Shown: piece by piece, positions 29,162 through 59,639 of the stretch
How positions within the stretch are numbered: position 1 is the first letter of the stretch
How the letters are laid out: every line of letters begins with the position of its first letter
Source: Tricharina praecox
Lineage: Eukaryota
Direction of reading: 5' to 3'
DNA: 64,000 nt
NCBI RefSeq assembly: GCF_024521635.1
Contig: NW_026250404.1
Location: forward strand, 124,001 to 188,000
Position numbers and translations under genes: made by a program
Notes under the pieces: generated by a model
What the model was told of the DNA's origin: nothing
The model's database searches: none
What the model saw: only the letters and a program-made list of their open reading frames with translations

Positions 29162-29508
29162 TTTTATTGCGTAGATGGAGATGTAGGTGTAGATATTGTT
29201 CTTTGTGTGTTGAGTCGAGGGAGAAGGTGAGAAGGAGCCCCTGGCCCCTGTTGGACGTCAGACCTCCCCACACGACACGCCAAGACGGCAATCTCCGGAG
29301 CCGTCCCAAACGAAACGGGTTCTGAGCAGATCGCAAAGGTACTTTGCGCATGAGTGAAGCGAACGAAGATATAATCCGCGGTCAACCCACCTGGACGCGA
29401 ATCAAACTCCAACAAAACCACCCTGCTGTCCTTCGCCACCGCGAATACTACCACGTTGCACCTGCTTCGTACCACCGGTCTTCCAAGCACCGCGTCGAAT
29501 AATCATCC

Positions 29509-31590
29509 ATGGCAAAAAAACGCAAGAGCAAGGCCAAGCACTACGCGTCGTCGGGACCGTCAGAGGCACCAGCCGCGCCCCCACCGCTGCCCGCACTTGA
29601 TGTGCCCGCCTTCGCGCTGACCGCCATCGTCGTCGAGGACAAGATGTCTGTTTCGCCTCCACCGTACCGCGTTCCCGAAGAAGCCGACGAAGGGGAATGG
29701 GAGCTGCCGGGTCGCAATAAGAAACCGAAGAAAGAAAAGTCCGAGAAGAAACGGAACTACCCAGAATTTGTGGTGTCGCCGCAAAAGCTGAGAAGGCAGG
29801 TGCAGCTGCACGATATTCAGAACCTGGTTCTGTGGTTAGCGGCGGATGCAGCTGCGCCGCAGTGGTTGCTTGTGAGGGTAAGTTTTCTATGACAGGATGG
29901 GCGGGGTGACTTCGGCAGAGTTGATCGTGCGGTGTAGCATAAACCGGCGATCCGAAGGCTGGTAGTGCTTATGGTGTCGGGGTTGACGATGAACATGTTT
30001 GACGGAAACCTGGACCTGGTGCCAGAAGGCCATTCGCCGTCCGATCAGGTCGTACCTGCCAGCGGAACAGCAGAGGAATTCTTCCCCAGTACACTTGATT
30101 CGGAAAAGCTTGCACCGTGTCTCCGGGGGATGGCAGATATGTTCTCACACGTCTGGCCTATCAAAGCCTCCGGCGATGACCGCGCCAATAGGATGCATTC
30201 GCCCGTGGGTAACTTTCTCACTGCGCCGCTTCCGAAGAAGACCGATGTCGTCAAGGAAACTCCGTCCGCACCCAAACAGCTGAAGGTCATACAGCTCTTG
30301 ATGACGCTGGCCGAGCTTGTCGAGAATGAGTACCCTCTTCATTCTTCACAACTGGAGGAAGTGCGTATGAGTATTGGCGAGGAGGAGACAGACGAAGATC
30401 GGGATCTGTTGGAGAAGAGGACATCGGAGGGCTGGGTGGAAACAGATATCTCGAAAGGAAACGGCGAAGACAAGAACCAAGCTGGCTCTATCCTCGATGG
30501 AAAGACCGTCTACTCCCTCGACTGTGAAATGTGCCAGACCGAGCACGGCCTCGAGCTCACACGAATCAGTATCCTGAACTGGGACGGCAAATCAATATAC
30601 GAAACCTTTGTTAAGCCCACAAATGCAATCACCGATTACCTCACCGTATACTCAGGCATTACCAAGGAGAAACTCGAGAACATCTCGACAACACTAGCAG
30701 ACGTCCAGGCCCACCTCCTTACTCTCTTCAATCGCGACACCATCCTCGTCGGACAATCCCTCAACTCCGACCTGGTAGCCATGAAATTCGCCCACCCGCA
30801 CATCATCGACACTTCCTGCATCTATCACCATACCCGGGGACCACCCTACAAACCCTCATTGAAATGGCTCAGTCAGCGCTTCCTCAAGCGCGACATCCAA
30901 AACACCGGACCAACCGGCCACGACTCAGCCGAGGATGCACAGGCTTGTCTCGATCTGCTCAAACTAAAAATCGAAAAAGGTGAAAAGTTCGGTACCAGCG
31001 ACGAAAACCGCGAGAGCATCTTCAAACGCCTCACCCGAGCACCGTACGGGAAAAAGGCCGCAATGGTAGACTACTCCGATCCCAACAAATTCTACGGCGC
31101 CTATGCAACTTCCACCCTTGACGCCACCAACGACGATGAAGTCGTTAAAAATGTAGGCAAGTGCGTCAACGGCGATATGGAAGCCGGACTACCAGCGATG
31201 GACTTCACGTGGGCGCGTCTACGCAGCCTTGAGACTGCACGCTGCTTCAGCGGCTCTAACAGCAAATCCACCGACATTGACGGCCCGCTCCCGGAAGTCG
31301 TTCGCGACCCACCGAAAGAAGTCTTGATCGAAAGCGTTCAGGAAACGGTAACGAGGATCCGGCAGATTTATGACGCCCTGCCGAAATGTACCGCGTTCGT
31401 GGTGTACTCGGGGACTGGAGATCCGAGACAGTGGAGATGTATGAATGACCTGCAGAGGAGGTTTAAGGAGGAGTATAAAGTGCGCAAGTGGGATGAGCTC
31501 GGCGTCAAGTGGACGGATGCCGAGGATCAGAAGTTGAAGAAGTCATTGAGTGCAGCGAGGAATGGGGTTGGATTTATGGTTGTTAAGTAG
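29509..31590 (+). CDS. DEDDh RNA exonuclease, REX1/RNH70-like; intron about 29878-29937
   Basis: SLDCEMC, ELTRISI, YSGIT, GQSLNSDL, IIDTS, PSLKWL, GHDSAEDA motifs. Confidence 0.9.
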
Positions 31591-32903: not shown

Positions 32904-35900
32904 CTAGCTAGATTCAAGCTGAGCATCCGAAATAAAATGACTCCCCCCCGCACACCTCCATCCATTTGATGTCTTTTGCCATTGGTATCCTGCCACACAA
33001 ACTCCCATCGCCCTCAACTTTTGCTGGACCTGCGCCTCCTGTTGCCTTCTCTTCTTCTCTAGTTCTCTAATCCTCTCCAGCTCCCTCGCCGCCTTCTCGC
33101 CTTCGATGCGAGCCCTTAGTTGCGTCAGCCTCAGGGTCTCCTGCTTCCGTTTGATCTCTTCAAGGGCTGCGTCATCCTTCGCCTTCAGTGCAGCTGCCTC
33201 CAGTCTCGCCAGCTCCTCAGCCACCCTCTTACGAACGGCCTCTTTAGCCGCCAGCGCTCGGAACTCAGCTTGCTTCTTCGCGATAGCCTCCTGCGCTTCT
33301 CGCAGCCGTTTTTCCTCGGCTGCCTTGCATGCCTGGAGTTCGTTCCAGACTGCGTCCGACACGCCGGGATCGCGCCCGTCGTCTTGCGGGGATGGCGGGA
33401 CCTCGGCGGCATCCTTTTGCTTCTGGGCGCGCGGCGGTGGGGGAGCTGTTGCTGTCCTCGGGGCTACGGATGGCGGAGGCGGCGCATCTAGCGGCGGCAG
33501 AGTCTGAGCAAACTTGGACGTTTCGAACTGCGGAGTCCGGTTTGCGGGGAGGTTTGCTCTTCCCCTCCGTTCTACCAGTAACTGTTTGACACACTCGAGC
33601 GCGGTCCGCGCAGATAGCTCGGGCGCGAACGCAGCGGACCCGGAGGACGATGGTGTCTTGTAGACGAAGCCGATCATTTTCTTGGCCAGCGTCTTCATGT
33701 CTCGGGCGTTTCCCCACGATGGCAGGACCGTGAGCTCACCGATGAGGCTCCGGAGCACGACATATCCGGGAGAATTCTGATCCTGCAGGAAATCCACGGT
33801 GATATTCTTCTTCCCGATGTCACTCGCCATGACCTGAAGGCAATGTTCTGGCGACAGATTGGTGAACTGAACTTCTTCCGGGAACCGGCTCGAGAGCCCG
33901 GAATTGACACTTAGCAGCCGGTTCATGTCGTCGTCATAACCTGCCAGGATTACGATCATCTTTCCCAGAAACTGTGGCTTCGTCAGAATATCGACAAGCT
34001 CATTGACGGCTTCCGTTGCAAAGTGTCCCTCTGCGAGGCGATAGGCTTCATCCACAAATAGCACCTGACCCAAGGCTTTCTCGAGCTGCTTTTTCGTCTT
34101 GGGACCGGTCTGCCCGACATATTGACCGATCAGATCCGTTGCCGAACATTCCACGACCTTGGCTGTCGATAGGAAACCCATGTCATAATATACCTGACCC
34201 ATTTTGCGAGCTGTCGTCGTCTTTCCGGTACCTATTGAAGGGGTTCAGTATGTTCCGGTAGAGTGTCATGGGGTCGCAGCAGTGGGACTAACCTGGGGGA
34301 CCCTTAAATATAAAGTTCGTCGGAATGAGCTCGTGCAGTGGGATTCCCTTAGCCTTGGCATTGATGGCTATTTGTTGATAGCCTTCGAGCTTAGCAACGA
34401 TGTCCTCGCAGCCTATGACGTCTTCAAACAGCTTCCTGCAATTCAGCGTGGCACTGGCGCCTCTGGCAAATTCGGGATCGAAATCCTCGGGCTCGAAGAC
34501 GACATCGAAGGCTCGCTCTGCTGGAGGCTTCTTGCTCTGCCGGGTTTGGAAATTCGTCTTCGCCTTGCTGAGCATGTTTTCCACCTCGCCGGCATTCCCG
34601 AAGTTGGGCCGCATGCTGCACCGATCGAGCAATTCACAGGCTACATCCTTTGCTTCTGGTGTGGCATCAAGACCTTGGTGCTTCAATTTTAGGTCCAAGA
34701 TTTCCCTCAGTTCAGCGTTCGTAAAGTCCAGGAAATGGAATGCGTCATCTATTGCGAAGCGACGCGCGAGACCCGGATTGACGTTCTGGAACATCGTATT
34801 CATCTGTTCTTCGTATCCTAGGAGGAGAACGCAGCGATCTTCTCCCGGTATCGATTGCACCTCGGCGACCAACGTGTCGATGACAGCGGTCTTGAACGGA
34901 TCACTCTGGTTTCCGACCCCACCCCCTCCTGAGTATAGGCTGTATGCTTCGTCGATCACAAGCACCTTCCCGACCGTTGTTACTAGTATCCCCTTGGTTT
35001 GGCTTTCGGAATGTCCTATGTATCCCCCGATGAAGTCCGATGGGTTCTTGACGACAACTGCATACTATTAGTGGTTTGAAAAAAGCCATCCAGAGATTGT
35101 GACCAACCTTCCCCGTTGCTGAGCATGCCCAAATCGTTCAACACCTGACCGTAGTACTTCGCCACAGTGGTTTTCCCGGTCCCAGGGGATCCGAGAAAAA
35201 CACGGTTGAGAGGAACCCGGATAGGCTCCTTTTCACTGAGCTCTCTCAAGTAGTTCGTATGGATCATATCGACCATCGACTGCACCGACTGCTTGACGGT
35301 TTGAAGACCTATCAACTCCTTCAGTTTGTTCCACGCCTCACTCTCCCCCAGGGCCTCCGCTGGGTTTGGTCCGATCAGATCTTCCCTTGTGAAAAAGAAG
35401 TCGTCTGATATCTTTCCATCTCGAGTCTCTCGGGTCAAGCGAACTCCCTGCCTCTCCCTGATCTTGGCGAAGACATTTGCAAGGCCTCTGGCATTCCCGA
35501 ATCCGTTTCGGCCTCGGCCTCTTCCCAGGCGCCGGACCACGATCCGCATGTAGAGGCCGCCCATGCCCTCCTCCACCTTCATTCTACCGCCGTACCATTT
35601 GTCGATCATCTTTCGCAACATCAGGTGGAGTTCGGGATCCTTGTAGTCTTCGAACTTCAGTGTGTACGGGATTCGACTTGGGATTCCCGGATTGTGCTCG
35701 AAGAACTACGAGTACATCACTTGGTGTAAGCATAACCCCGTAGCATGATAGCATGGTGCAGTTGTAACTTACAGACTCCATTTCTTTCGTGTAGCCGGCG
35801 AACAGGAAGACGATCTTTCCCACATTGTTCTCGATCTCCGCAAGCAGGAAATCGAGGACTTGGGCTCCGCCGGTGCTCTGCTTCTCGGTGAGCTGGTAAG

Positions 35901-38900
35901 CTTCGTCAAGAAAGACAGCACCGCCCCCGGCTTTCTGAATGTCGTCGATAATTTTCTTCGCCCCGGGTACGCCGTCGTTGGCCAAACGAGAGCCAGTAGT
36001 CTCCACAAATTCGCTCCCCGGCAAAACGCCCTGGTATGTATTCAAGAATTCGGCATATAGACGTGCCACGGTTGTTTTACCTACAGATTGTTGTCAGAAA
36101 TTCGTCACCAAAAGATGGATACGATTTCATACCAGTGCCGGGATTGCCTAGCATCACCACTCCAAAACGCTCATTCTTGAAATCGACATTTTGACGGAGA
36201 GAAACGTCAATCTTTGCCTATTTTTTTTCCGGAGGGGGAACAGTCAGCGATCGAAACATGACCTGCTCACGCCTTGGGAATACCTTGATATTCAAGACCT
36301 GCTCCTTGACATTCTCCAGTCCGGTCATGTCCATGAGCGTATCCAAGGCCTTGTTGTTGGCATTTTCGAAAGCTTTCTGCCGTCGCCATTCTTTCTCCGA
36401 ATCTGAGGGTTCGAGCACTGGATCTGGAACCAGTTTGCGCGGTCTGGCATGTGGTTTGGCCGTAGCTGGTGGTACGGCGGCGGGAGTAGTGCTGGTTGAA
36501 GGATTGGTTGGAGGCGTGTTCGTGCTTGGATCCAAGGGTGCTAGAGGGGGTACGCGTGGGGGCTGCTGAGTTGCAGGATCCTGTGGAGACGAGGGCAACG
36601 TGGGCTGCTGTGGGGGAGGGATGGGTGCCCGACGTGCAGCGATAGCAGCGAAGGCAGCGTTCTGCAGATCCCGTTTCTTCTGCTCGATAGCATTTTCCCT
36701 TGCTATGCGGTCCTGTTCGTCTTTCATCTCTTGTCTCTTCCGTTCGATCTCTTCGTCGAGAAGTACCAACTGCCGGAGGTGTTCCTTCTGTGCCGCTTCG
36801 CGTTGCTGTTGCAGCTCGAAATCTCTCTGTTGCCTCTTTTCAGCAGCCAGCCGCTCGCGTTCACATTTTTCACACACGACCGGCGGCCCTTTGTGACACT
36901 TCCATCGGTACGGGTGGCCTTGATCGCACTTCGCGTGCGTAACGAATTCACAAGGCATCTTTGAATGATCCGAAAGCTGATGACAGTGTTGAGGGCACTT
37001 ATGCACTCCACAGCTGAGGATAGTTCCGCTAGAATTCTGGTTAGAACCATGCCTTTGAATAGGATAAAGGGAATCCTTACCATGGTTCTGTACACCCACC
37101 GTCGGGACACTCGTCGTCAAAGTCTTGAGGCTTGCGGAGGAACGTTTTCCTGTCCGGGTGCCGCTCACATTTTGCGGGAAGTCCGTCGTGAATGAATCCA
37201 CCTACCTTCAGAAGATCGAAGAACCTGGTCCACATTTCCTTACCCTTGCGGGCATGGAGGAAGGTTTCCGGGTTGCTGAATGTGAAAGTTAGCATTTACT
37301 TTTGTTTCCATACTGCACCAAGGACGTACATACCCAATCAGTATGAGACCGTTTTGCGCCCGAGACAAAAGAACGTTCAACCTCTCCGGAGCAGACATAA
37401 AGCCAATGTCGTTGTCGTCATTGCTCCTTGTGAGGGAGGCAATTACGATCTCGCTCTCCTCGCCTTGATAGTTATCTAAGAACAATCAGCCTTTGAACCC
37501 AAGTTGTTTCAATACTCGACATAGCCGAAGGTAGGTTCCCGTACCGATGGACGAAATCTTTATAGGGTTCTTGGTGACGTGAGCACTGGCAGCCGGTAAC
37601 AATCTATCCGACAGTCAGAAATTTCGTCACACGGTGTTTCTGCAGTCGTGAACTTACCCAGCGCGGACCAGATCATAAGAGTCAAGATCGTTGAGGACGG
37701 GATCGTTGTCTTTGCTCAACTTTTCTCGAAGCAGTTGTAGCTGCCCAAGATATGGCGTCAAAACCACGATTTTGTCCGTGCCATATCCCTGCTGCCCAAG
37801 GTATCGAACGGATTTCAAAACCATTTCAGCCTCGAATGTGTTTTGTTTGGAGGATTTGTACGTCAGTCCGTCCTTATCTCCTAGTCGGGGATTATGGTCT
37901 TCTGGCTTGTCATGGCTGACAAAGATCAGATTGCCATTATGGAATCCTCGAATGTCTGGCCGTTGCTGAGTCCCAGGTCCGTCGATGAGGTCCGGATAAG
38001 TTAGAGTTCTGATGAGTGAGGATATTTCCGGTCGCATGCGATGCTGCATGGTAAGAGTCTGATGGGGAAACCCCTTCATGACGAGACGCTCGAATAAGGA
38101 TCTATTGAGATCGTATCCGTCACCTTTCTCGACTGTTAGCTGATAATTGCTCACCTTTGGCCGTAGTTGTTTGTGGTCGCCGATCAGGATCAACTGGTCG
38201 GTCTTAAACCCCAAAGCAGTGAGGATATGACTCTCCAGTATCTCTCCCGCCTCTTCCTATTAAATAGTTATTCAATGAAACTGGCTTCGAATGGTGGTGT
38301 TTTAATTCTTACCACTAGAAGCACGTCTGCATTCGCTGCCTGTAATTCCTCATACTTCATAGCTGCAGCACTCGTCGTACACCCGATGATACGTTTCTCC
38401 CGTAGGACTGTGGCATCCTTCAATCTGTACATGCGGCTGATTTTGTTCTGGCATTCGTTATACTCTTGGGCGAGAGCACTGATGTCATGTGCCTGTTCTC
38501 TGGACAGTGTCGTCGTCCATCGCTGGTATATAGCCTCCCGGTCTGGGTATGGCTTTTCCCAGATCCCCCGCGTTTCTTGGGTGACATTCCATCTGAAAAT
38601 TCCAGCATCCAATCCCCTAAGCCATCGATCAAGTAGGTAATATTCATCCACGGCCTTGCCTTTTTTGCTTACCGTTACCATTCCATCGTCGTTGGAAGGC
38701 ACAGTGAACGCCCCGAACCAGTCCGGTCCATCGTCATCAAGGAACTCTAGATGAGTCATGAACTGGTGAAATTGGTTCGGAGCGGAAATATATTGTTGGA
38801 AGTCCTGTTTCAGCTGCATATCCAGACGACGTGCCTCCGATTTGAGTTGGTCAATGACCTTGTAGGTTTCCCGGGGAAGACCTCTGCCGCCGGCACCTTG

Positions 38901-40641
38901 GAGAACAAGAGGCTTCGTCCTGGCAGTCGACTTGGCTCCGAGGCGCACCATACTTGACGCAGGAATTCCGATATCAAGCAGATCCTCCAAGAACTGATCG
39001 AGGGCGTGATTTGTATAACACACCACGAGGATCGTCTTGTCGGTGGAGTCATGGATAATCTTGGCAAGCAAAGCTCCGATGAAAGACTTGCCGGTACCTG
39101 CAGAGAATCAATTAGTAGGCGAATAGACAGTGGGGCCCGCGTGGGATGAACTTGCCTGGCGGTCCTTGGATAAGACTGACTCTCTGCCTCAATGCTGTAA
39201 GTAGAGACACGCACTGAGACTTGTCCAGTCTAATTTCTTTCGGCGATTTGATTTTGAGAAGCCCGCGCAAATCTTGGGACGGGTTGGTTTCAATCTCCCG
39301 AATGCGCGCGTCGGGAACTGACGAAGGTTGCTCGACATTAGTTCCTTCGGTCCATGACAGCAGCTCGTCGCTCAGCTCCATTTCCTTGATGCCTTGTAAG
39401 CGGATAAGAATCGGCTCATATGCGAAGACCGCAGTGTTGATCTGAACCAACTTGATAACACGCCCGGTCTTGAGCTTGAGAAATGCGTTATGCATGTTCT
39501 GGTTACTAGAGAACTGTAGCAATAGTATCGGTAGTTTGGCGGCAAGGAGGTCTTCGTCGCGGTTGATGCATGGGAATGCCACTACTTCGTTATCGACGAT
39601 CAAGCAGGTTTGAGAAAGATGCTTCATGAAAGTTTTGTTCGTGATTAGGAACTTCTTCCGCTTCGCCGGCTCCTTGTGCTTGCCGAGTTGGGGGAGATCC
39701 TTCGCGCACTGAAGTTTGAGGCCCCATGGTTGTTGGCGAGCAGGATTGCATTCGATTCCGAGTATCTTGAAGCCTTCGAGAATCATCCCGCGATGGGGTT
39801 TCTTCTTGATTCCAAGGGCAATCTGCAGCTCCTCGCGCATCTCCGCAACCATGTCTTCCCGTAAAAGTCGAAATTGGTTGTCCAGATGGATTCCGAGACG
39901 CACCCCATCGTCACACGCCTCCTCCATAGCCTTGGCCGTCCGCATGAAGGGCTTCTCTTCGGTTCTGAACTCGTCTGCAGTTGGCATGATGGTGATTTTC
40001 CGAAAGTCGGGGAAATCATTGTCATGACGCCCTCCCGGACCGCCGTATCCGTCGAAGGTGAGTGGAGTCGCCGTGGTGGTCGAAACGATGTGTTTGATCC
40101 TGTGGCCGAGGTTGCGGACTTCCAAGTGAGGAGAATTCAACAGGCGTTCCTGCAGGGCATCCTCTTGAGCGAGCTCATTATACTGCGCGGCCTTTTCCTT
40201 CTGAAGAGACACGAGCTCAAGGAGTAGCCAAGCAAAACATTGTTGCGCCTGTCGCTCCAGTTTATCGTCTTTGTATGCGCGTACGAAGCAATCCCAGAAA
40301 ATCGGCGGGTCTACCATCTTCGAGAGGACCTGGTGTAGGAGATCGCCTCCCATGATGGTCTTGAGGTCTGGATTCTGTAGATATTTGAGGGTCAAGGCTG
40401 CCGGCCCGTTCAAGAAGGTCGGATCTGTTCTGAAGCGCATACATTGCTGAACAGTAGGAAGAGCCCCAGCTATGAGCCTCTGAATACAATCTGCTGGGTC
40501 CTGCACCCTGATCGATTCCAAAAAAAGGTTGCCCTGTGTAGAAGTCGATACCGGCTTTTTACCTGTTACAACCTGATTGAAAAGAACGTCGAGTTTGGCC
40601 TTTCGTTTGGCGTCGTTAGGGTCCCCAGAGGACGCAGACAT
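32904..40641 (-). CDS. ZNFX1/UPF1-like SF1 helicase + NF-X1-like Cys/His region + coiled coil + three CbbX/SpoVK-type AAA+ domains + C-terminal Cys/His motif; 12 exons, about 2,350 aa
   Basis: Helicase motifs GGRHDND, IQGPPG|TGKS, YTNHALDQ, VEEAGE, IGDHKQLRP, SLFERL, QHRM, DNYQGEE, NVLLSRA. Three AAA modules with GNPGTGKT, GSPGTGKT, GPPGTGKT and DEAY Walker B motifs. I found no disabling stop after splicing. Confidence 0.92.
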
Positions 40642-41339
40642 CTCTCACGATGTCAAAAGATGTAAATTCTGGGAAATGAGGGGTAGAGGATGTTTCGTGC
40701 GAGTGAGGTGAGACAGCGTTGGGAGCCAAAAAGAGAATGCAGAAAAGCGGATGTTCGGACGAAGTAGAGGGCGAGACAGAGGACGAGACAGAGGGTGATT
40801 TTCAAAGGCAACTCAATGGGGGCGGCAAGAGTATCTAGACTTCCGGCGGGTGGAAGAAGAGGGGTTGTAGAAAGACGGAGAAGATATGAGGATGCCGGTA
40901 TTCTAGAACGTGCAGGCTGCAGCACCGTGTTTGGACGTTTGGGGCTCGCCGGTTGAAGCATCATATATCACGTCACTGCGCCGCATGCGCTATGGTTGGC
41001 CGTGTAAGGAGCAGTGTCGTCCATGGTGTTCTCTCTCTAGCAATGTCGTCCATAGAACAGCGGCGATAGGTGTGAATGTACGTTGTGACCGTCGAGGCCC
41101 ATCACTAAGACGTTCGCATCCTGCCACAACAATTCAGACTCTAGAGAACTCCTCCGAATCTTCGGTATTGTCCCGCAGCACATAACTGCCCCCTCAGCCT
41201 CCAGGTCTTGAGAATCCAGACACCTGTGTCCAGCACACCTTCCCATTCACATATCGTTAGCGCTTTCTTCCATGCGCACTGACGCGTGCATTCCTTGTGC
41301 TCGGCAGCGTGGCCCCCACGATGCGAACAGGGTCGCGGT

Positions 41340-41475
41340 GCTGGAGACATCACGTCGTTGGAGACATCACGCCGCTAGAGACATCACGCCGCTGGAGATA
41401 TCACCCTGCTGGAGACATCACCCTGCTGGAGACATCACCCTGCTGGAGACATCACCCTGCTGGAGACATCACCCA
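41340..41475. repeat. Minisatellite, 8 x 17 bp (GCTGGAGACATCACCCT), upstream of the helicase-AAA gene
   Basis: Eight contiguous units; left copies more diverged (CACGTC/CACGCC endings). Confidence 0.95.
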
Positions 41476-44940: not shown

Positions 44941-47900
44941 TTATGTGGTAGCGCCTGCTGTACATAGCCGTTCCACTATCTCAAGATGGCCTCCCTTCGA
45001 TGCTGCTTGTAGCGCTGTTCTTCCAAGAAATTCAGCTGGCTCTGCGTTGACATTGGCCCCCTTCTCCAAAAGTCGATTCACCAGCTCAAGATGGCCTCCC
45101 TCCGATGCTGCTTGTAGCGCTGTTCTTCCATCGCCACGTGCTGGCTCTGCGTTGACATTGGCCCCCTTCTCCAAAAGTCGATTCACCAGCTCAAGATGGC
45201 CTCCCTCCGATGCTGCTTGTAGCGCTGTTCTTCCATGAAATTCAGCTGGCTCTGCGTTGACATTGGCCCCGTTCTCCAAAAGTCGATTCACCAGCTCAAG
45301 ATGGCCTCCCTCCGATGCTGCTTGTAGCGCTGTTCTTCCATTCCTCCATGTTGGCTCTGCGTTGACATTGGCCCCGTTCTCCAAAAGTCGATTCACTATC
45401 TCAAGATGGCCTCCCTCCGATGCTGCTTGTAGCGCTGTTCTTCCATTGCCCCATGTTGGCTCTGCGTTGACATTGGCCCCCTTCTCCAAAAGTCGATTCA
45501 CCAGCTCAAGATGGCCTCCCTCCGATGCTGCTTGTAGCGCTGTTCTTCCATCCGATTCAGCTGGCTCTGCGTTGACATTGGCCCCCTTCTCCCAAAGTCG
45601 ATTCACCAGCTCAAGATGGCCTCCCTCCGATGCTGCTTGTAGCGCTGTTCTTCCATCGCTACGTGCTGGCTCTGCGTTGACATTGGCCCCCTTCTCCAAA
45701 AGTCGATTCACCAGCTCAAGATGGCCTCCCTCCGATGCTGCTTGTAGCGCTGTTCTTCCATCCGATTCAGCTGGCTCTGCGTTGACATTGGCCCCCTTCT
45801 CCAAAAGTCGATTCACCAGCTCAAGATGGCCTCCCTCCGATGCTGCTTGTAGCGCTGTTCTTCCATCCCACACAGCTGGCTCTGCGTTGACATTGGCCCC
45901 GTTCTCCAAAAGTCGATTCACCAGCTCAAGATGGCCTCCCTCCGATGCTGCTTGTAGCGCTGTTCTTCCATCCCACACAGCTGGCTCTGCGTTGACATTG
46001 GCCCCGTTCTCCAAAAGTCGATTCACCAGCTCAAGATGGCCTCCCTCCGATGCTGCTTGTAGCGCTGTTCTTCCATCGCGACGTGCTGGCTCTGCGTTGA
46101 CATTGGCCCCCTTCTCCAACAGAATTTCCACGATATCCGTTTTGCCGGACGCCGCTGCGAATTGCAATCCCGTCCGCCCCGACCCGTTATCGCAGTTGAC
46201 GTCAACAATTCCATAATCTAGCAGGTGGCGGACGTTTACAGCATCTCTTGAAAGGATTGCATCATAGAAGGCATTTATGTACCTCGCGTCCACGGCCGAG
46301 GGAGAGATTTGGTTTTCTTCATCAAGAATTTTCGCCTTGTTGCTGGAAACTAGTAGTCGTAGTCGTTTCAGGACGTTCAGCATGGCTTCAAGTAAACCCT
46401 TCGCCAAATCTTTCCCTGGTTGCCGAAGGTACTTCAGCAAAACCACCGCCATCATAACGGCAGCAAACACTGGCACTGCAATGTAGAAATAGGTCGTCCA
46501 GCGAGGGTTGTCCTTAAGCGCGTCCACATTCATTCCGTACAAACTCTAATAGGTACTTAGTAAGCAACTCTCAAAGTTTCGAAACGCAAGGTATCTTACC
46601 GCGACGAATAGTAACGGTAGAAAGATAAACTAAGAGGATTTGTGGTCAGTTACTACTAGACTAGGGATTGTTACGGTGGAGGAATGTACCGTGATCCAAG
46701 AAAGCCTCTTGACGCTGTAATTCTGCTCTCGGGCCTTGCATGCCTCGTCGATGGAGACGATATTGGATGCCTAAGCATAGGACTGTTAGATTTCACACTG
46801 GAAAAGAGAAATTTCCACTAGGATACCCTTTGAAGCAAGACATCGATTCTTCTAATCAACCCTTCTTCTAAGGTTTTGCCGACACCTGCAAGCCGCTGCT
46901 TTGCTTTTACTAGATCGGTGCTGACCTCGTTGTCTCGCTTGGGTACCTTGCCCTCTTGACTCGAGCGCTTCCGTGGAACTCTTGATGTCGCCCACCCCGG
47001 ATGTGAGGTCATCCGTACAGCCCTATAGTAACTTCCGTAGGGATATCTAGGGCGGGGGCGTTGGTTGGAATGAGGCGGCTTGTCCTGACTCTTCAGGTCG
47101 GCGTCGTCATTTTCTTCCTCGTCCTCACTCCCCAGGCGTTGATTCCACTTCACATCACTGATCTGATGCAAGGCCTCAATGCTCTGAATTTGTTCGCGCT
47201 GCGCAGCTTCCAGTCGGGAGGCTACGTCGGCGACGGAGACCAAGGACCGTATGAATTGTCGGTAATTCAATTCCTGATCACCCATTATTTTCCTGCTCTA
47301 AAAACTATGAGTCTCATACTCTGGTATCATAGGATTGAGAAAACATACTGCGTCAGACAATAATTGCTTATAGCAGTTGATCAGCTTCTCCCAATCTCCA
47401 CACACATCGTTTAAGCAAGAAGCTAGAATTGATGCAGGTGTGGTGTTAGGTATAGATTGATTGTCGGTATTCTTCCAGAGGTGGTTGAAGTAATACTTTC
47501 GGCCGGATTTGTCGGTCAGGAAGAAGAAGGCGAGGCGCTTCCGGCGGACAAACGTGTGGCTTCTCATCGTCAGCTTCTCGTGTTAGGGTTATTGATCACA
47601 AACGCACATCGCAGTATCAGTATACAGCGTTACCGTCTCATCCGTGGACGCGATCTGCGCCGTTTCGACGTCCTCAAGTACTTGTGGCCTCTCTCGGATG
47701 CCCACCTCTTCGTAAGTTGGAATTTGCACCCAGAAACCGCGTGCTGTTCAGTCAGTGATGTCCACAAACAAACACTCCAAGCCGCAGTCATTTATCACGT
47801 ACCGCAACGGGGTTTGAGATCGCCTGGGCATCTTTTGCAGCCACATTTTTCGGCATTCCCGATACATTCATTACAATCACATGAGGAGCTCTTGAGGTAA

Positions 47901-54736: not shown

Positions 54737-56109
54737 ATGTCGCCGCGCGATCCCATCGTCGAAGCGGGCTCTCCGGCAAAGGGCGAGAACGAAGTGGCAC
54801 CTTCGCCGGCGGGGGTGAGGAGGCACAGAACCCGTCAACAAACAGCCTCTATGTTTGTTCTCGCGACCCTATTTCTGGACGACGGTCCACCGCCCCCGCC
54901 TGCGAGGTGATCCAAGAGACACTTGGAGACGGCTGCCGCGAAACCCATCCCACCAAAGAAGCGGATGAAGGCTACCGGAAGCTCCGATGTGACTACCTCT
55001 AAGGTGCAGCGGCAATCGAAGAGCACAGCGGCACCGGTTAAGACCGAAACTCCAGCTGCAAAGACCCTGACTCGGGTTAACAACACTGCTCCGAAAGAAG
55101 TCGCTACTCGTCCTCGTTCGGCACGAGTCATCAAGGCCGCTGCATCGCATCTCAAGGCTGAAAGTGCTGCTTCGGGAGTAGCCACAGTCCGATCTCGTTC
55201 GGGACGGCCCATCAAGGTGCCCACTTCGTTGCAGCCCCAGGCTGACACTGTCGCTTCGGGGGTAGCCGATGCTCGTCCTCGTTCGGGACGGAACATCGAT
55301 ACCAGCTCAACCCGGAAAGCGCCTCGCGGGCAGCATGTCAAGGCCGTCCCGAGGAAGCCAGTGGCCTTACCAGAGCCAGAGATCGAATGCGCGATCTGTT
55401 TGGAGTCCATGCGGCCGGCGAACTTTCCGGCGAAGCTGACTTCCACCTGCAACCACTCGCCCACTAGTTGCGGCGACTGCGTGCGCAACCTCCTTACCGA
55501 GGCTTTCGCCGGCAAGGAATGGGTTCTCCCAGCGTGTCCGGATTGCTCTGCCGAGTTCACGTCCAGCGAAATTCGGCTCCTCGGCACCGCCGAACAGGCG
55601 GAGACATTCGAGTGGCGGTTGACGAGCCAGTTTCTGCGAACACTGGAGGAGTACCGCAGCTGCCTCGATCCCGAGTGCGACGCGGGGCAGATCCACGCGG
55701 GCGGCGACGACACGCCCATCGTCACCTGCGACGCCTGCGGGTTCCAGCAGTGCTACTCGCACAACATGCCGTGGCATGCGGACCTGACGTGCGCGCAGTA
55801 CGATGAGCGCGAGCACCACCAGCGGCTCGAGGAGAACAAAGCCTCCGAAGAACTGGTGAAGCAAACTGCGCAGCGCTGCCCCGGTTGCAGCATCACCGTC
55901 ACGAAGATCGATGGCTGCGATCATATGACGTGCCAACGATGCAAGACCGGCTTCTGCTACCTGTGCGTGGCGTTGTACGCCGGGAAAAACGGGTATATCA
56001 CGTGGGAAACGGTGCCCACAAAGAATCGTGTCCGTACTACGCCCGGTACGACCCTCACGCCCGATATGACCCTCACACCGGGCACGATCGCACCCACGAC
56101 CGCAACTAG
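54737..56109 (+). pseudogene. RBR (RING-IBR-RING) E3 ligase paralogue with an in-frame TGA at 54908 and a -1 frameshift near 55990
   Basis: CAIC..CNH..CGDC..CPDC RING1, IBR, CPGC..DGCDHMTC RING2. The homologous tail VYHVGNGAHKESCPYY lies in the -1 frame. A protein could still start at ATG 54965. Confidence 0.7.
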
Positions 56110-56554
56110 TAACAGCGCCACGGTCATATAACGCTCTCGTATGCGTATATAAACCTGGGGCAGGAGGCGTACTCGGGGGACGACGTTCGAAGACAGCTGC
56201 GTGCTGAGACATATGGGATGGATGGTGGCTAGAAGGAGGAATTGCGGGCGGGCTTCAAATAAGCTTTAGTCCAGTATCTCGGTGTTAACTATCATTAGCT
56301 GTGAGACAATTGCGTTTATTTCCATACATATCGTTTGTTTCTTGTATGTACCCGGTCGTGGCGGCCGGCAGTTCCTTATTACTTCATTCATCTTGTTTAC
56401 GATATCTCCTAGGCTAGTTATTTTCACCTTGCATACTCTGCTCTACTCTAGGCCACTTATTGTTATCTCACCTGCTTCATTAATTCCCACACGCCGCGAC
56501 GATACCAGTCGCGGATAAGAACCTTCAAGTTGGATAAGAGTCAAGACCACATTC

Positions 56555-57262: not shown

Positions 57263-58511
57263 TTATTTTCAGTGTTCGGTGGTGGATGAGGTGAGAATGG
57301 GGATGAGGATGAGGGTGAGGATGAAGATGGGGAGAAAGATGAGAAGGAGGTATGAGGAAGGAAGGAAGGGTATCGTGATTAACGGGCTCCTGGAGAGTTT
57401 GCTATTCCCATAGTAGCTTCGACGACTCGAAAGTAAAATCGATAGAGTTCGGGCCAGGCTATTGGTTTGGCTTCGGCCCGTCGTAGGTTGATTACACAAA
57501 ACGATATTGATGGTCTCGGCGTGGCGAGACCCACAGTGAGAGTTCGGGTTTCTTTTTTGGCTTCCTTTTTTTTCTGTTTCAGTTTTACGTTTGTTGGTTC
57601 ATCTATTACTGTCATCGTCCATCGCGATTCGCGAGCCCACGGCCCGAGTATGTAAGCAACTATTGCGAGTGACATCGATGATGGTGAGGATCCACGGTGC
57701 ATGCACCGATGATCATCTTGATATTGATGTTGGTATTATGTATCAGCTAGCCGGTTCGACGCAGCCAAGGAACGAGCTGGATGCAGCTGCAGCTCGCCAT
57801 AGATAGGATCGCCGATGCGGAAGGGAAAGTCCAACCAACCCCACGCGGAGCTTTCCGGTTCGAATACGGGTATCGTAGGTAGGGAGTTGTGTGCGGAATA
57901 GCGTACCTAGAGGCTGCCGGAATCTCCGTATCGCAAAGCTGGATTTCCATCCGGGGGGTTGTCTCGTTGGAGGATGTTCGTTGAAGTGCGGGGTACCGAC
58001 TAGCAGAAGCTTATCCGTATCGTAGGTAACTAAGGACCAACGGCAGTAGTGGGTGCGCACTCGTAGGTTAGCGTCGAGCACCCGTTTGCGCACTTTCCAC
58101 GCCACGCCAGGCCCACAATCTCGCCTACATACGGTGGTTGTGGATGTAAGTTCAGCCGTTGGTAGAGAAACAGCCAACACAGCACACACACATACACACC
58201 AACCACAGCCTTGACGCATCCAGCCGATGGGGCCGCCACCGCCATTGGACGGATGCTTTTGTTTGTGCAGAAAGGAAAAGCCCCAACTCTACTCGATGAA
58301 TCCCGCAAGTGGCTGGTCGATTACTGAGGGGTGTGTGGATGTGTGTGGGTTGCACTGTGCCCCCGCTCTTGCTGGAGCTTCCCCTCCGCCTGTGTTTATT
58401 ATGACCATACCAGCTCTCTGCGCTCGCGCAATCCTTCCTGTCCGCGGATCTCGCACATACCGCTCGCTCTTCTCCGACTCCGGATCCCACCACACGGCGC
58501 CGAGCTGAAAC

Positions 58512-59639
58512 ATGTACGCTGCTACTAATCCCAACGGATTCTGGGAGCACCTGTTTCCCGGGGCTGCCGGTGTCCCTCACACTTTCCCGCGCGATGTCCC
58601 TCACTGGCCGCCGGCGCCGGGCCCACCCGCTGCCAAAGCGTTCCCGGAAACGTTCACACCGCGCTACTCGCACCGCTCCATCTCTCCCAAGCTATGCGTC
58701 GGCTGCGGCGACTTCGCACCCATCTACTTCCACGAGACGCCCGGTCTCTCAATCCTCGCACGGCGCGTGCACCAGCGCTGCTATATCTGCCTGACGTGCA
58801 TCCAGTCACGGATCTCTGGCACAGTATCCGGCACATGGGTGCGCTGCCCCGGCTCCCTCTGCAGCCGCGAGCTCAGCAACGCCGACATCCGCATCCTCTT
58901 CCGCGCGAACGAGCACGGCGAGAGCCGCGACATGCCACTACCCTCACCCGGCACACTCTTCCCGGCCACACACGCGCCCGTCAAGTGCTGCACCTGCCTC
59001 GAGACCGACCCATCAGGCGGCTTCGCCCCCCGGCTAACCGACAACTGCCGACACCACCCCACACTCTGCTTTGGGTGTCTGCGGGCGATGCTCTCGCACG
59101 CGCTCGACGGGAAGGCATGGGTTGATCCCGCGTGCCCGGACTGTCGACAGCCGCTCTCGGCCGCAGACGTAAAGCGCTTCGGCACCGCGACGCAGATGAA
59201 AACGTTTGCGGACCGCGCGGCGCGCCGCTTCCTGCAGGATAATCCCGACTGGCTGATGTGTCCCAACGGCTGGTGCGGGCAGCTGCAGAAACATGAGGGC
59301 GGAGCCGCTCGCCCCTGGCTGCAGTGTCTCGCTTGCGGATCGTTCATGTGCTTCAACCATCGCGACGAGCCGTATCATGCCGGACTGTCGTGCGCGGAGG
59401 TGGATGATGCGAGGAATAGGGTCATGCAGGAGGGCATACAAATGAGCGAGGAACTGGTCCGCAGCATCTCAAAGGTTTGCCCGAACTGCCAGTTCGATAT
59501 CCATAAAACTGGCGGATGCGAACATATGACCTGCGGAAAGTGTAAGTACGAGTTCTGCTTCCTGTGTCTGGCGTCGTACGAAAAGATTAGAGCCATTGGG
59601 AACACGGCGCATGTGAGGTCCTGTGCGCATTATGCATGA
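58512..59639 (+). CDS. RBR E3 ubiquitin ligase with an extra N-terminal RING-like module (intact, single exon)
   Basis: RING1 CCTC..CRH..CFGC..CPDC, IBR CPNGWC..CLAC..CFNH..H..C, RING2 CPNC..GGCEHMTC..C..FCFLC. Confidence 0.9.
   Translation: MYAATNPNGFWEHLFPGAAGVPHTFPRDVPHWPPAPGPPAAKAFPETFTPRYSHRSISPKLCVGCGDFAPIYFHETPGLSILARRVHQRCYICLTCIQSRISGTVSGTWVRCPGSLCSRELSNADIRILFRANEHGESRDMPLPSPGTLFPATHAPVKCCTCLETDPSGGFAPRLTDNCRHHPTLCFGCLRAMLSHALDGKAWVDPACPDCRQPLSAADVKRFGTATQMKTFADRAARRFLQDNPDWLMCPNGWCGQLQKHEGGAARPWLQCLACGSFMCFNHRDEPYHAGLSCAEVDDARNRVMQEGIQMSEELVRSISKVCPNCQFDIHKTGGCEHMTCGKCKYEFCFLCLASYEKIRAIGNTAHVRSCAHYA

Follow-up and report, generated by a model that had tools for sequence, protein, structure and literature searches.

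The 64,000-nucleotide stretch of Tricharina praecox DNA analysed here (contig NW_026250404.1, positions 124,001 to 188,000 of the forward strand; hereafter the window) carries on its minus strand a gene for a giant protein in which an RNA helicase of the ZNFX1 type is joined to three AAA+ modules of the SpoVK/CbbX clade and to a small terminal Cys/His domain, called the tail below. Judged by its sequence, the input side of the protein is ZNFX1-like and its output side CbbX-like, and it is not a full member of the ZNFX1 family because the RZ finger is missing. As the preliminary description of the locus noted, the architecture is already known from annotations; it is also mentioned in PMC11513918 (PNAS 2024), whose text names, in passing, eukaryotic members of the SpoVK/CbbX clade with a superfamily 1 (SF1) helicase. 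The triple repeat, the tail and the neighbours are not described in that text, and a keyword search of its supplementary information was likewise empty. In the literature searched, where subscription journals are poorly covered, no functional study of the protein or of its Neurospora crassa counterpart NCU09357 was found, nor was anything that joins ZNFX1 or NFX1 with CbbX, nor a paper on 'GbpA', the name given to an Aspergillus relative. What is new here is the linkage of the family to Argonaute and Dicer genes, the conserved asymmetry of its motors and the recognition of the tail as an independent mobile domain.

The gene and its transcript

The features of the gene are as follows (positions are those of the window; aa, amino acids; exon limits come from the spliced frame and contig joints).

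32904..40641, minus strand: whole gene, 12 exons and 11 introns, product of 2,364 aa
40641-39156, 39097-38313, 38256-37658, 37603-37545, minus strand: exons 1-4
37475-37334, 37275-37081, 37028-36284, 36217-36133, minus strand: exons 5-8
36080-35773, 35705-35108, 35057-34293, 34231-32904, minus strand: exons 9-12
40072..40641, minus strand: variable N-terminal domain, aa 1-190 (identity to relatives 27% in the median)
37185..40062, minus strand: ZNFX1-type SF1 RNA helicase with insertions, aa 194-1054 (Pfam, PDB match, motifs)
36857..37184, minus strand: Cys/His zinc stalk, aa 1055-1146 (17 conserved putative ligands, homology to ZNFX1 fingers)
36407..36856, minus strand: charged segment resembling a coiled coil, aa 1147-1222, followed by a poorly conserved, Pro-rich tether, aa 1223-1296
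35355..36406, minus strand: AAA+ module 1 (AAA1) of the SpoVK/CbbX clade, with Walker A and B, GY, Arg finger and sensor-2 Arg
34465..35354, minus strand: AAA+ module 2 (AAA2), Walker A and B intact, double Arg finger, sensor-2 Gly
33558..34464, minus strand: AAA+ module 3 (AAA3), every motor element, including the pore-loop Tyr/Phe and sensor-2 Arg
33006..33557, minus strand: second Pro-rich linker, R-D-x-G-V-S-D motif and charged helix
32907..33023, minus strand: terminal, unnamed domain of about 40 aa, Cys-x14-Cys-x4-His (C2334, C2349, H2354)

The spliced frame of 7,095 nucleotides (nt) encodes the 2,364 aa with no internal stop, and the introns measure 50-69 nt (n=11), the first of them being GC-AG. 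All 11 introns are missing from contigs assembled from two public runs (X1 and X2), each belonging to a different study, and a single 7,811-nt contig from public runs carries the entire coding region. The runs have no record as RNA and their nature is a guess; spliced RNA is deduced because intron-less contigs are the product expected from it. Intron skipping and the contig that spans the whole coding region therefore mean that the helicase-AAA+ fusion is real and is expressed as one spliced RNA.

Run X2 contains an additional 53-nt skip with canonical ends inside exon 3 (38102-38154); its length is not divisible by 3, so that skipping it would alter the reading frame inside the helicase part. 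The X1 contig extends to at least 41000, which gives the gene a long 5' untranslated region, and eight 17-bp tandem units with 91% matches lie at 41339-41474, some 700 bp before the start codon.

Helicase, motors and tail

Conservation is counted below over 118 long (full-length) relatives, or 118-119 for some positions. The helicase exons match Pfam AAA_11 and AAA_12; Walker A lies at aa 493 (K499), the Walker B EEA at 758-760, and motif VI is present. Human ZNFX1 (9q9z) is the sole match of exon 1 among PDB sequences, the N. crassa relative aligns to the same chain with an E-value of 1e-76 in an alignment that continues through the zinc region, and UPF1 ranks second after ZNFX1. The RNA-binding F-x5-R pair, F1002 and R1008, is conserved in 115/118 and 114/118 relatives, respectively (the domain order and RNA-binding residues of ZNFX1 are taken from the available text of bioRxiv 10.1101/2025.10.14.682297 and 10.1101/2025.09.05.674436, and further properties from that of PMC13710534). 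The helicase is an SF1 (UPF1-like) enzyme of the ZNFX1 type, nearest to ZNFX1 itself and with intact motifs, as the preliminary description had it. No Pfam match was obtained for aa 1-190, which in position may correspond to the armadillo dimerisation domain of ZNFX1. The Cys/His-rich region seen earlier also stands: 17 Cys and His residues in aa 1060-1144 are conserved in 94-110 of the relatives (three further His are not), and by homology the stalk corresponds to the leading NF-X1-type fingers of ZNFX1, only the first few being retained. The Pro-rich linker is likewise real, the tether at aa 1223-1296 being 34% Pro. As to the RING-like Z-RING/Miz domain that binds E2 in ZNFX1, a scan of aa 1145-2333 by pattern found no Cys cluster.

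The AAA+ exons match Pfam AAA and AAA_lid_6, and exon 11 searched against the PDB returned CbbX (E 2e-18) and EccA1 and nothing else. Walker A begins at aa 1361, 1640 and 1920, each module has a Walker B DE, and the Walker A Lys and Walker B Asp-Glu are conserved in all three modules in 117-118 of 118 relatives. Each module also carries the GY signature of the sensor-1 region (Tyr in 117/119, 117/119 and 113/118 relatives for AAA1, AAA2 and AAA3) and an Asn upstream of the Arg finger (N1473, N1761 and N2032, conserved in 115, 116 and 107 of 118-119); the finger Arg stands 6 residues past this Asn (5 and 6 in AAA2), a distance worded as 4 in PMC11513918. The claim that all three modules are complete holds for their Walker motifs and fails at sensor 2, where the Arg of AAA1 and AAA3 (117/118 relatives each) is replaced by Gly in AAA2 in 118/118. 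The Arg finger of AAA2 consists of two adjacent Arg, again in 118/118, and AAA2 appears to be a derived module of the SpoVK/CbbX/EccA clade. The pore loops differ as well. At the position defined by alignment to Tyr114 of CbbX, presumably the residue that grips Rubisco, AAA1 has no aromatic residue, AAA2 has Tyr in the window protein and Ala or Val in 96/118 relatives, and AAA3 has Tyr or Phe in 115/118. AAA3 alone retains every motor element, and the asymmetry among the three motors is conserved; it may be inferred that the motors share the work unequally, AAA3 being the subunit that does it, and that two chains together build a six-module ring. Beyond the motors, the R-D-x-G-V-S-D motif (aa 2209-2215) is near-invariant (115-117/118) and is shared with relatives from Phytophthora and Eutreptiella.

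The terminal Cys/His motif noticed earlier (aa 2334-2354) is present, and its C2334, C2349 and H2354 are conserved in 117, 109 and 111 of the 118 relatives. The fuller pattern C-x2-G-[YF]-x-W-x5-G-[YW]-x-C-x-GG-x-H occurs in 115/122 proteins of the first relative sets, and the two Cys and the His are kept in 437, 428 and 424 of 438 copies selected with a hidden Markov model (HMM). The AlphaFold2 model (pLDDT 91) predicts a well-folded unit of helix, beta-hairpin, knuckle, short strand and helix. In the searched library this small, unnamed domain has 1,640 representatives at E <=0.001, the best 150 of which were examined, a selection that favours multi-copy proteins. Among 155 tail proteins examined, 74 have an AAA+ region and many others resemble last-exon fragments. 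A minority differ clearly, some with arrays (16 and 8-9 copies); four copies follow a TPR region (P0271) or a ubiquitin-like ULD_2 domain (P0132, Pleurotus), and one copy goes with DM9 (P0213). Two more proteins join tails to pieces that match NACHT (P0145) or a kinase (P0134) below the Pfam cut-offs, and some fusions may be gene-calling artefacts. The tail thus appears to be an independent, mobile and repeatable domain, and it is plausibly a small zinc-binding module.

Tails also end an orthologous helical protein of 444-460 aa on two IMG/VR contigs (L007:3756-5138 and L012:4956-6290), which share their gene order near P9_TM, a SAM decarboxylase and a DNA polymerase III alpha-like gene; calling them giant-virus-like rests on the IMG/VR origin, the GC content of L012 (26%), intronless genes and the P9_TM match. 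Two further viral loci (L008 and L009; E 2e-4 over 13-14 residues) lack the tail pattern and were set aside. A strict DNA pattern, which diverged tails could escape, gave two matches in prokaryotic genomes, and both were rejected as prokaryotic tails: one (L010, NYXK01000109.1) is filed in a Deltaproteobacteria metagenome-assembled genome and is an intron-bearing fungal contig, and the other (L011) is an off-gene chance match. A word-based search for short tail proteins returned two. Fold searches with the tail model gave nothing better than E 4.4 (Foldseek, PDB), Z 3.9 (VIA-align) and E 1.7 (viral models), values that, for a model of 45 residues, demonstrate neither novelty nor the absence of an RZ beta-sandwich. 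The tail profile matched no PDB sequence, and the ESM Atlas gave no usable match for the tail or for protein P0123. A predicted complex of two tails with zinc scored 0.00 with no alignment used, and carries no weight either way.

The preliminary description had suggested that the tail could be a zinc or ubiquitin-transfer module like the terminal finger of ZNFX1 and RNF213. According to the available text of PMC11549300, the RZ finger has six Cys/His at 0, +4, +11, +20, +23 and +32, with C-x3-H and C-x2-C as zinc ligands and the Cys at +11 and the His at +32 as catalytic residues. The Tricharina genome's own ZNFX1-like gene (C61) shows this spacing, whereas the tail has three such residues at 0, +15 and +20. 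None of 32 tails matches PF20173 (RZ), nor do the exons of the gene or the N. crassa relative, and the RZ pattern is found in 0/118 long relatives; as a positive control, both halves of the genome's true RZ match PF20173 with E 9e-13 and 8e-5. The probability given by hhalign to an alignment of tail and RZ is 0.2-0.3%, and on the tail HMM the true RZ reaches -6.3 bits, a score exceeded by 271 of the 272 shuffled sequences that were scored. Spacing, the controlled Pfam search, hhalign and HMM score together rule out an RZ finger at the level of sequence, and the earlier suggestion of an RZ-like transfer module finds no support in the sequence.

Relatives, paralogues and gene neighbourhoods

The helicase-triple AAA+ design is common in Dikarya, where it is annotated already. 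A search with the last exon gave 976 longer proteins among 7,999 scored; the named matches in the best 120 are mostly from Ascomycota and Basidiomycota, with Phytophthora (four AAA+ modules) and Eutreptiella in addition. A second search yielded 120 long relatives, most of them Sordariomycete proteins of 2,200-2,400 aa. Among the proteins examined, the fusion to the helicase is found in fungi only, and AAA+ repeats that end in a tail and lack the helicase were seen both in fungi and in sequences of protistan appearance. Two of the latter (L089 and L080) have three AAA+ modules and a tail preceded by a thioredoxin-like domain (a Pfam match in L080). A probably bacterial metagenomic protein of 1,689 aa (P0103) combines four related AAA+ modules with a terminal trypsin-like peptidase domain, to be compared with the statement in the text of PMC11513918 that peptidase associations were not found in the SpoVK/CbbX/EccA clade. 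Matches of about 900-1,400 aa could not all be accepted as natural AAA-only proteins: many start in mid-domain and resemble partial gene models.

In N. crassa, a protein annotated as 'stage V sporulation protein K' (XP_958936.2, 2,307 aa) has an equal architecture, including the tail, and is 47% identical over 2,215 aligned residues; it is likely the orthologue, NCU09357, a locus tag linked to it by the shared annotation name only. The Tricharina genome retains C61, a canonical ZNFX1/SAD-3-like gene with long zinc fingers and an intact RZ, and the window protein is therefore a second, specialised ZNFX1 paralogue. The family is not strictly single-copy, whereas universal single-copy conservation was among the signs that, in the preliminary description, would together have spoken against the defence reading: Tricharina has AAA-only paralogues, and Sordaria has two nearby copies. 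One Tricharina paralogue, C13 (L004:3260-8026), has three AAA+ modules, no tail and a low-complexity N-terminus rich in Pro, Gln and Tyr; similar proteins occur in Wilcoxina and Trichophaea. In a quickly built AAA3 tree of 88 rows, from which 5 redundant loci were omitted, the window protein groups with C13 and with proteins of these two genera (SH-aLRT 97). In another, C42 (L005:860-1100), an in-frame TAG stands just ahead of an otherwise intact tail; C42 and a further copy, C67, are identical over 3,180 nt, and the TAG possibly reflects recent loss or read-through. The search of the genome for tails used a single sequence and may miss diverged copies.

A pattern scan of metagenomes found at least 119 stretches of the family, 39 loci of which, at 663 bases or less, give no context. 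Among the matches listed, 20 full-length loci extend 1.5 kb or more upstream of the gene; in 14 of these, or 12 of 17 once redundancy is removed, it is preceded by a gene that lies head-to-head with it. The model of this partner's product (pLDDT 65) matches mouse DXO/Dom3Z with E 9e-10 and then Rai1 proteins; Pfam coverage of the partner family is almost nil, with a weak RAI1 match in one member. The members (L021:616-1845 and relatives) have an acidic C-terminus of their own and, in about half of those aligned, a four-Cys motif. Downstream, and again among the matches listed, 30 family loci have 2 kb or more of sequence (27 non-redundant; 29 metagenomic loci and L010, six short ones being assigned by hand), and in 4 of them an Argonaute gene lies within 10 kb, compared with a chance expectation of about 0.03-0.08. 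Dicer is also present in two of the four. In L087 the DXO-like gene, the helicase-AAA+ gene, Dicer and Argonaute follow one another in a row, and in L010 the helicase-AAA+ gene is followed by Argonaute and then Dicer.

The surroundings of the gene in the window are largely core genes. Tail-to-tail downstream of it lies a gene for an RNase_T-family (REX1-like) exonuclease (29503-31590, plus strand), which may be ordinary synteny. Upstream are a gene for what we take to be a protein with about 12 near-identical ankyrin repeats (44941-46545, minus strand) and two genes whose Cys-rich products are presumably RBR-like (54911-56131 and 58509-59639, both plus strand).

Possible function and comparison with known systems

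On balance, we lean towards the view that the protein is an RNA-triggered remodeller of silencing complexes, probably antiviral. In this fungal paralogue of ZNFX1, a dedicated remodelling motor would have taken the place of the ubiquitin-ligase end, and the protein would serve RNA silencing, most likely its vegetative antiviral or anti-transposon branch. The helicase would bind single-stranded RNA and track 5' to 3', as ZNFX1 does. Two chains would provide six AAA+ modules and hence one ring, in which AAA3, with its pore-loop aromatic residue and sensor-2 Arg, could be the gripping subunit and AAA1 and AAA2 structural or regulatory ATP sites. Like CbbX, EccA and SpoVK, the motor may remodel one narrow client and not degrade it; the client would most likely be an Argonaute/Dicer complex or an RNA-bound one, or else proteins that coat foreign RNA. 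The DXO-like partner may trim or decap RNA 5' ends for decay or silencing, and the Cys2His domain that follows a long helix could recruit the client as a small docking module held together by zinc. The conserved F-x5-R helicase and the DXO, Argonaute and Dicer linkage favour the part of the preliminary description that proposed a nucleic-acid-sensing machine coupled to protein remodelling; its defence part gained no support from virus induction.

Several observations weigh against this view. In the window, the gene has no DXO-like, Argonaute or Dicer neighbour; the best Dicer match of Tricharina is about 2.25 Mb away on the same contig, its four Argonaute loci are on other contigs, and its DXO-like matches are distant (22-27%) and elsewhere in the genome. 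One ancestral cluster could explain all four Argonaute linkages: the quick tree places L010 and L071 as sisters, and identity among the Argonautes of the four loci is 47-78%; L087 is placed elsewhere on that tree and L023 is too short for placement. Three AAA+ modules with a tail often occur without the helicase, and the motor would therefore have RNA-independent uses. The relatives in Sordariomycetes are orderly and conserved, unlike fast-turnover immune genes. In N. crassa, NCU09357 rises during conidiation in dependence on ADA-6, according to the available text of PMC6468284 (repeated in PMC11708020), and it is absent from the text and supplement files searched of PMC7648066, which reports virus induction of another helicase, NCU04472.

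PMC5384783 gives RNAi roles to the helicases SAD-3, Hrr1 and RnhA and lists NCU09357 as an 'uncharacterized' helicase outside the Sad-3/Hrr1 cluster. In favour of the remodeller view, a table in PMC3571971 lists NCU09357 with raised dN/dS on one branch only, together with qde-2, the RNA-dependent RNA polymerase NCU08435 and the NF-X1 helicase NCU05861.

A broader form of the remodeller view is decidedly more speculative, and we offer it tentatively: an undescribed arm of RNA-silencing immunity in filamentous fungi, organised in places as a Dicer-Argonaute-helicase/AAA+-DXO cluster, in which an asymmetric two-chain ring would load, recycle or strip silencing and viral ribonucleoproteins (RNPs), and in which the Cys2His docking domain, a new one, would recur in conflict proteins of fungi and protists and would have been taken up by giant viruses to serve as a decoy.

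Somewhat less probable again is a developmental or housekeeping factor in RNA processing, for instance in UPF1-like surveillance or RNP remodelling at sporulation, with the DXO-like nuclease as its partner on RNA of the cell itself and the Argonaute and Dicer neighbours as a relic of one old arrangement. The conidiation data, the rank of UPF1 among helicase matches, the good conservation across Sordariomycetes, the core-gene surroundings and a DXO-like partner far commoner than Argonaute all agree with such a role, which leaves unexplained, however, the occurrence of Argonaute and Dicer in two different orders (L010 and L087), the turnover of paralogues and the tails on giant-virus-like contigs. 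It is improbable that the protein is a sensor of non-self of the fungal NLR type, its AAA+ modules oligomerising once RNA is bound and the clustered tails passing a signal to downstream effectors that carry or bind tail domains (kinases, TPR or NACHT proteins), so that growth arrest or cell death follows and not silencing. Arrays of up to 16 tails, the placing of tails behind other domains, the long helical protein of the viral contigs and the HET and HeLo genes found downstream, in one family locus each, would suit such a sensor; yet the NACHT and kinase matches fall under the Pfam cut-offs, some fusions may be artefacts, and fungal genomes often carry HET and HeLo genes. The least probable reading, that of a ZNFX1/RNF213 hybrid E3 ligase with a shortened RZ-type transfer module, can point to the place of the tail at the extreme C-terminus after a helix, as for RZ, and to its near-invariant two Cys and one His, a Cys-His pair among which could be nucleophile and base, and is opposed by the failed RZ comparisons above and by 16-copy tandem arrays, which fit a binding module better than a catalytic one.

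ZNFX1, an antiviral sensor in humans, was recently shown to be an RNA-activated ubiquitin ligase, and its fungal paralogue, on the remodeller view, suggests that this RNA sensor has been coupled to a different output as well, that of mechanical remodelling. Should the connection with Argonaute, Dicer and DXO prove true, the protein is a new component of fungal RNA silencing, and one present in a model organism. With human ZNFX1 (9q9z), SAD-3, Hrr1 and RnhA it shares the SF1 core, the region that precedes it, the F-x5-R pair and the first zinc fingers; unlike ZNFX1, it has a short zinc stalk and no RZ, and carries three AAA+ modules and a different tail instead. AAA_lid_6, the GY signature, the Asn before the Arg finger and the top PDB match ally its motors with SpoVK, CbbX and EccA, from which it differs in having three unequal modules per chain, fused to an RNA helicase. 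Finally, it resembles RNF213 as a giant chain with several AAA+ modules and a small terminal Cys/His domain, but RNF213 combines six dynein-like modules with a RING and an RZ, and the window protein has three CbbX-type modules, an RNA helicase and a tail of a different kind.

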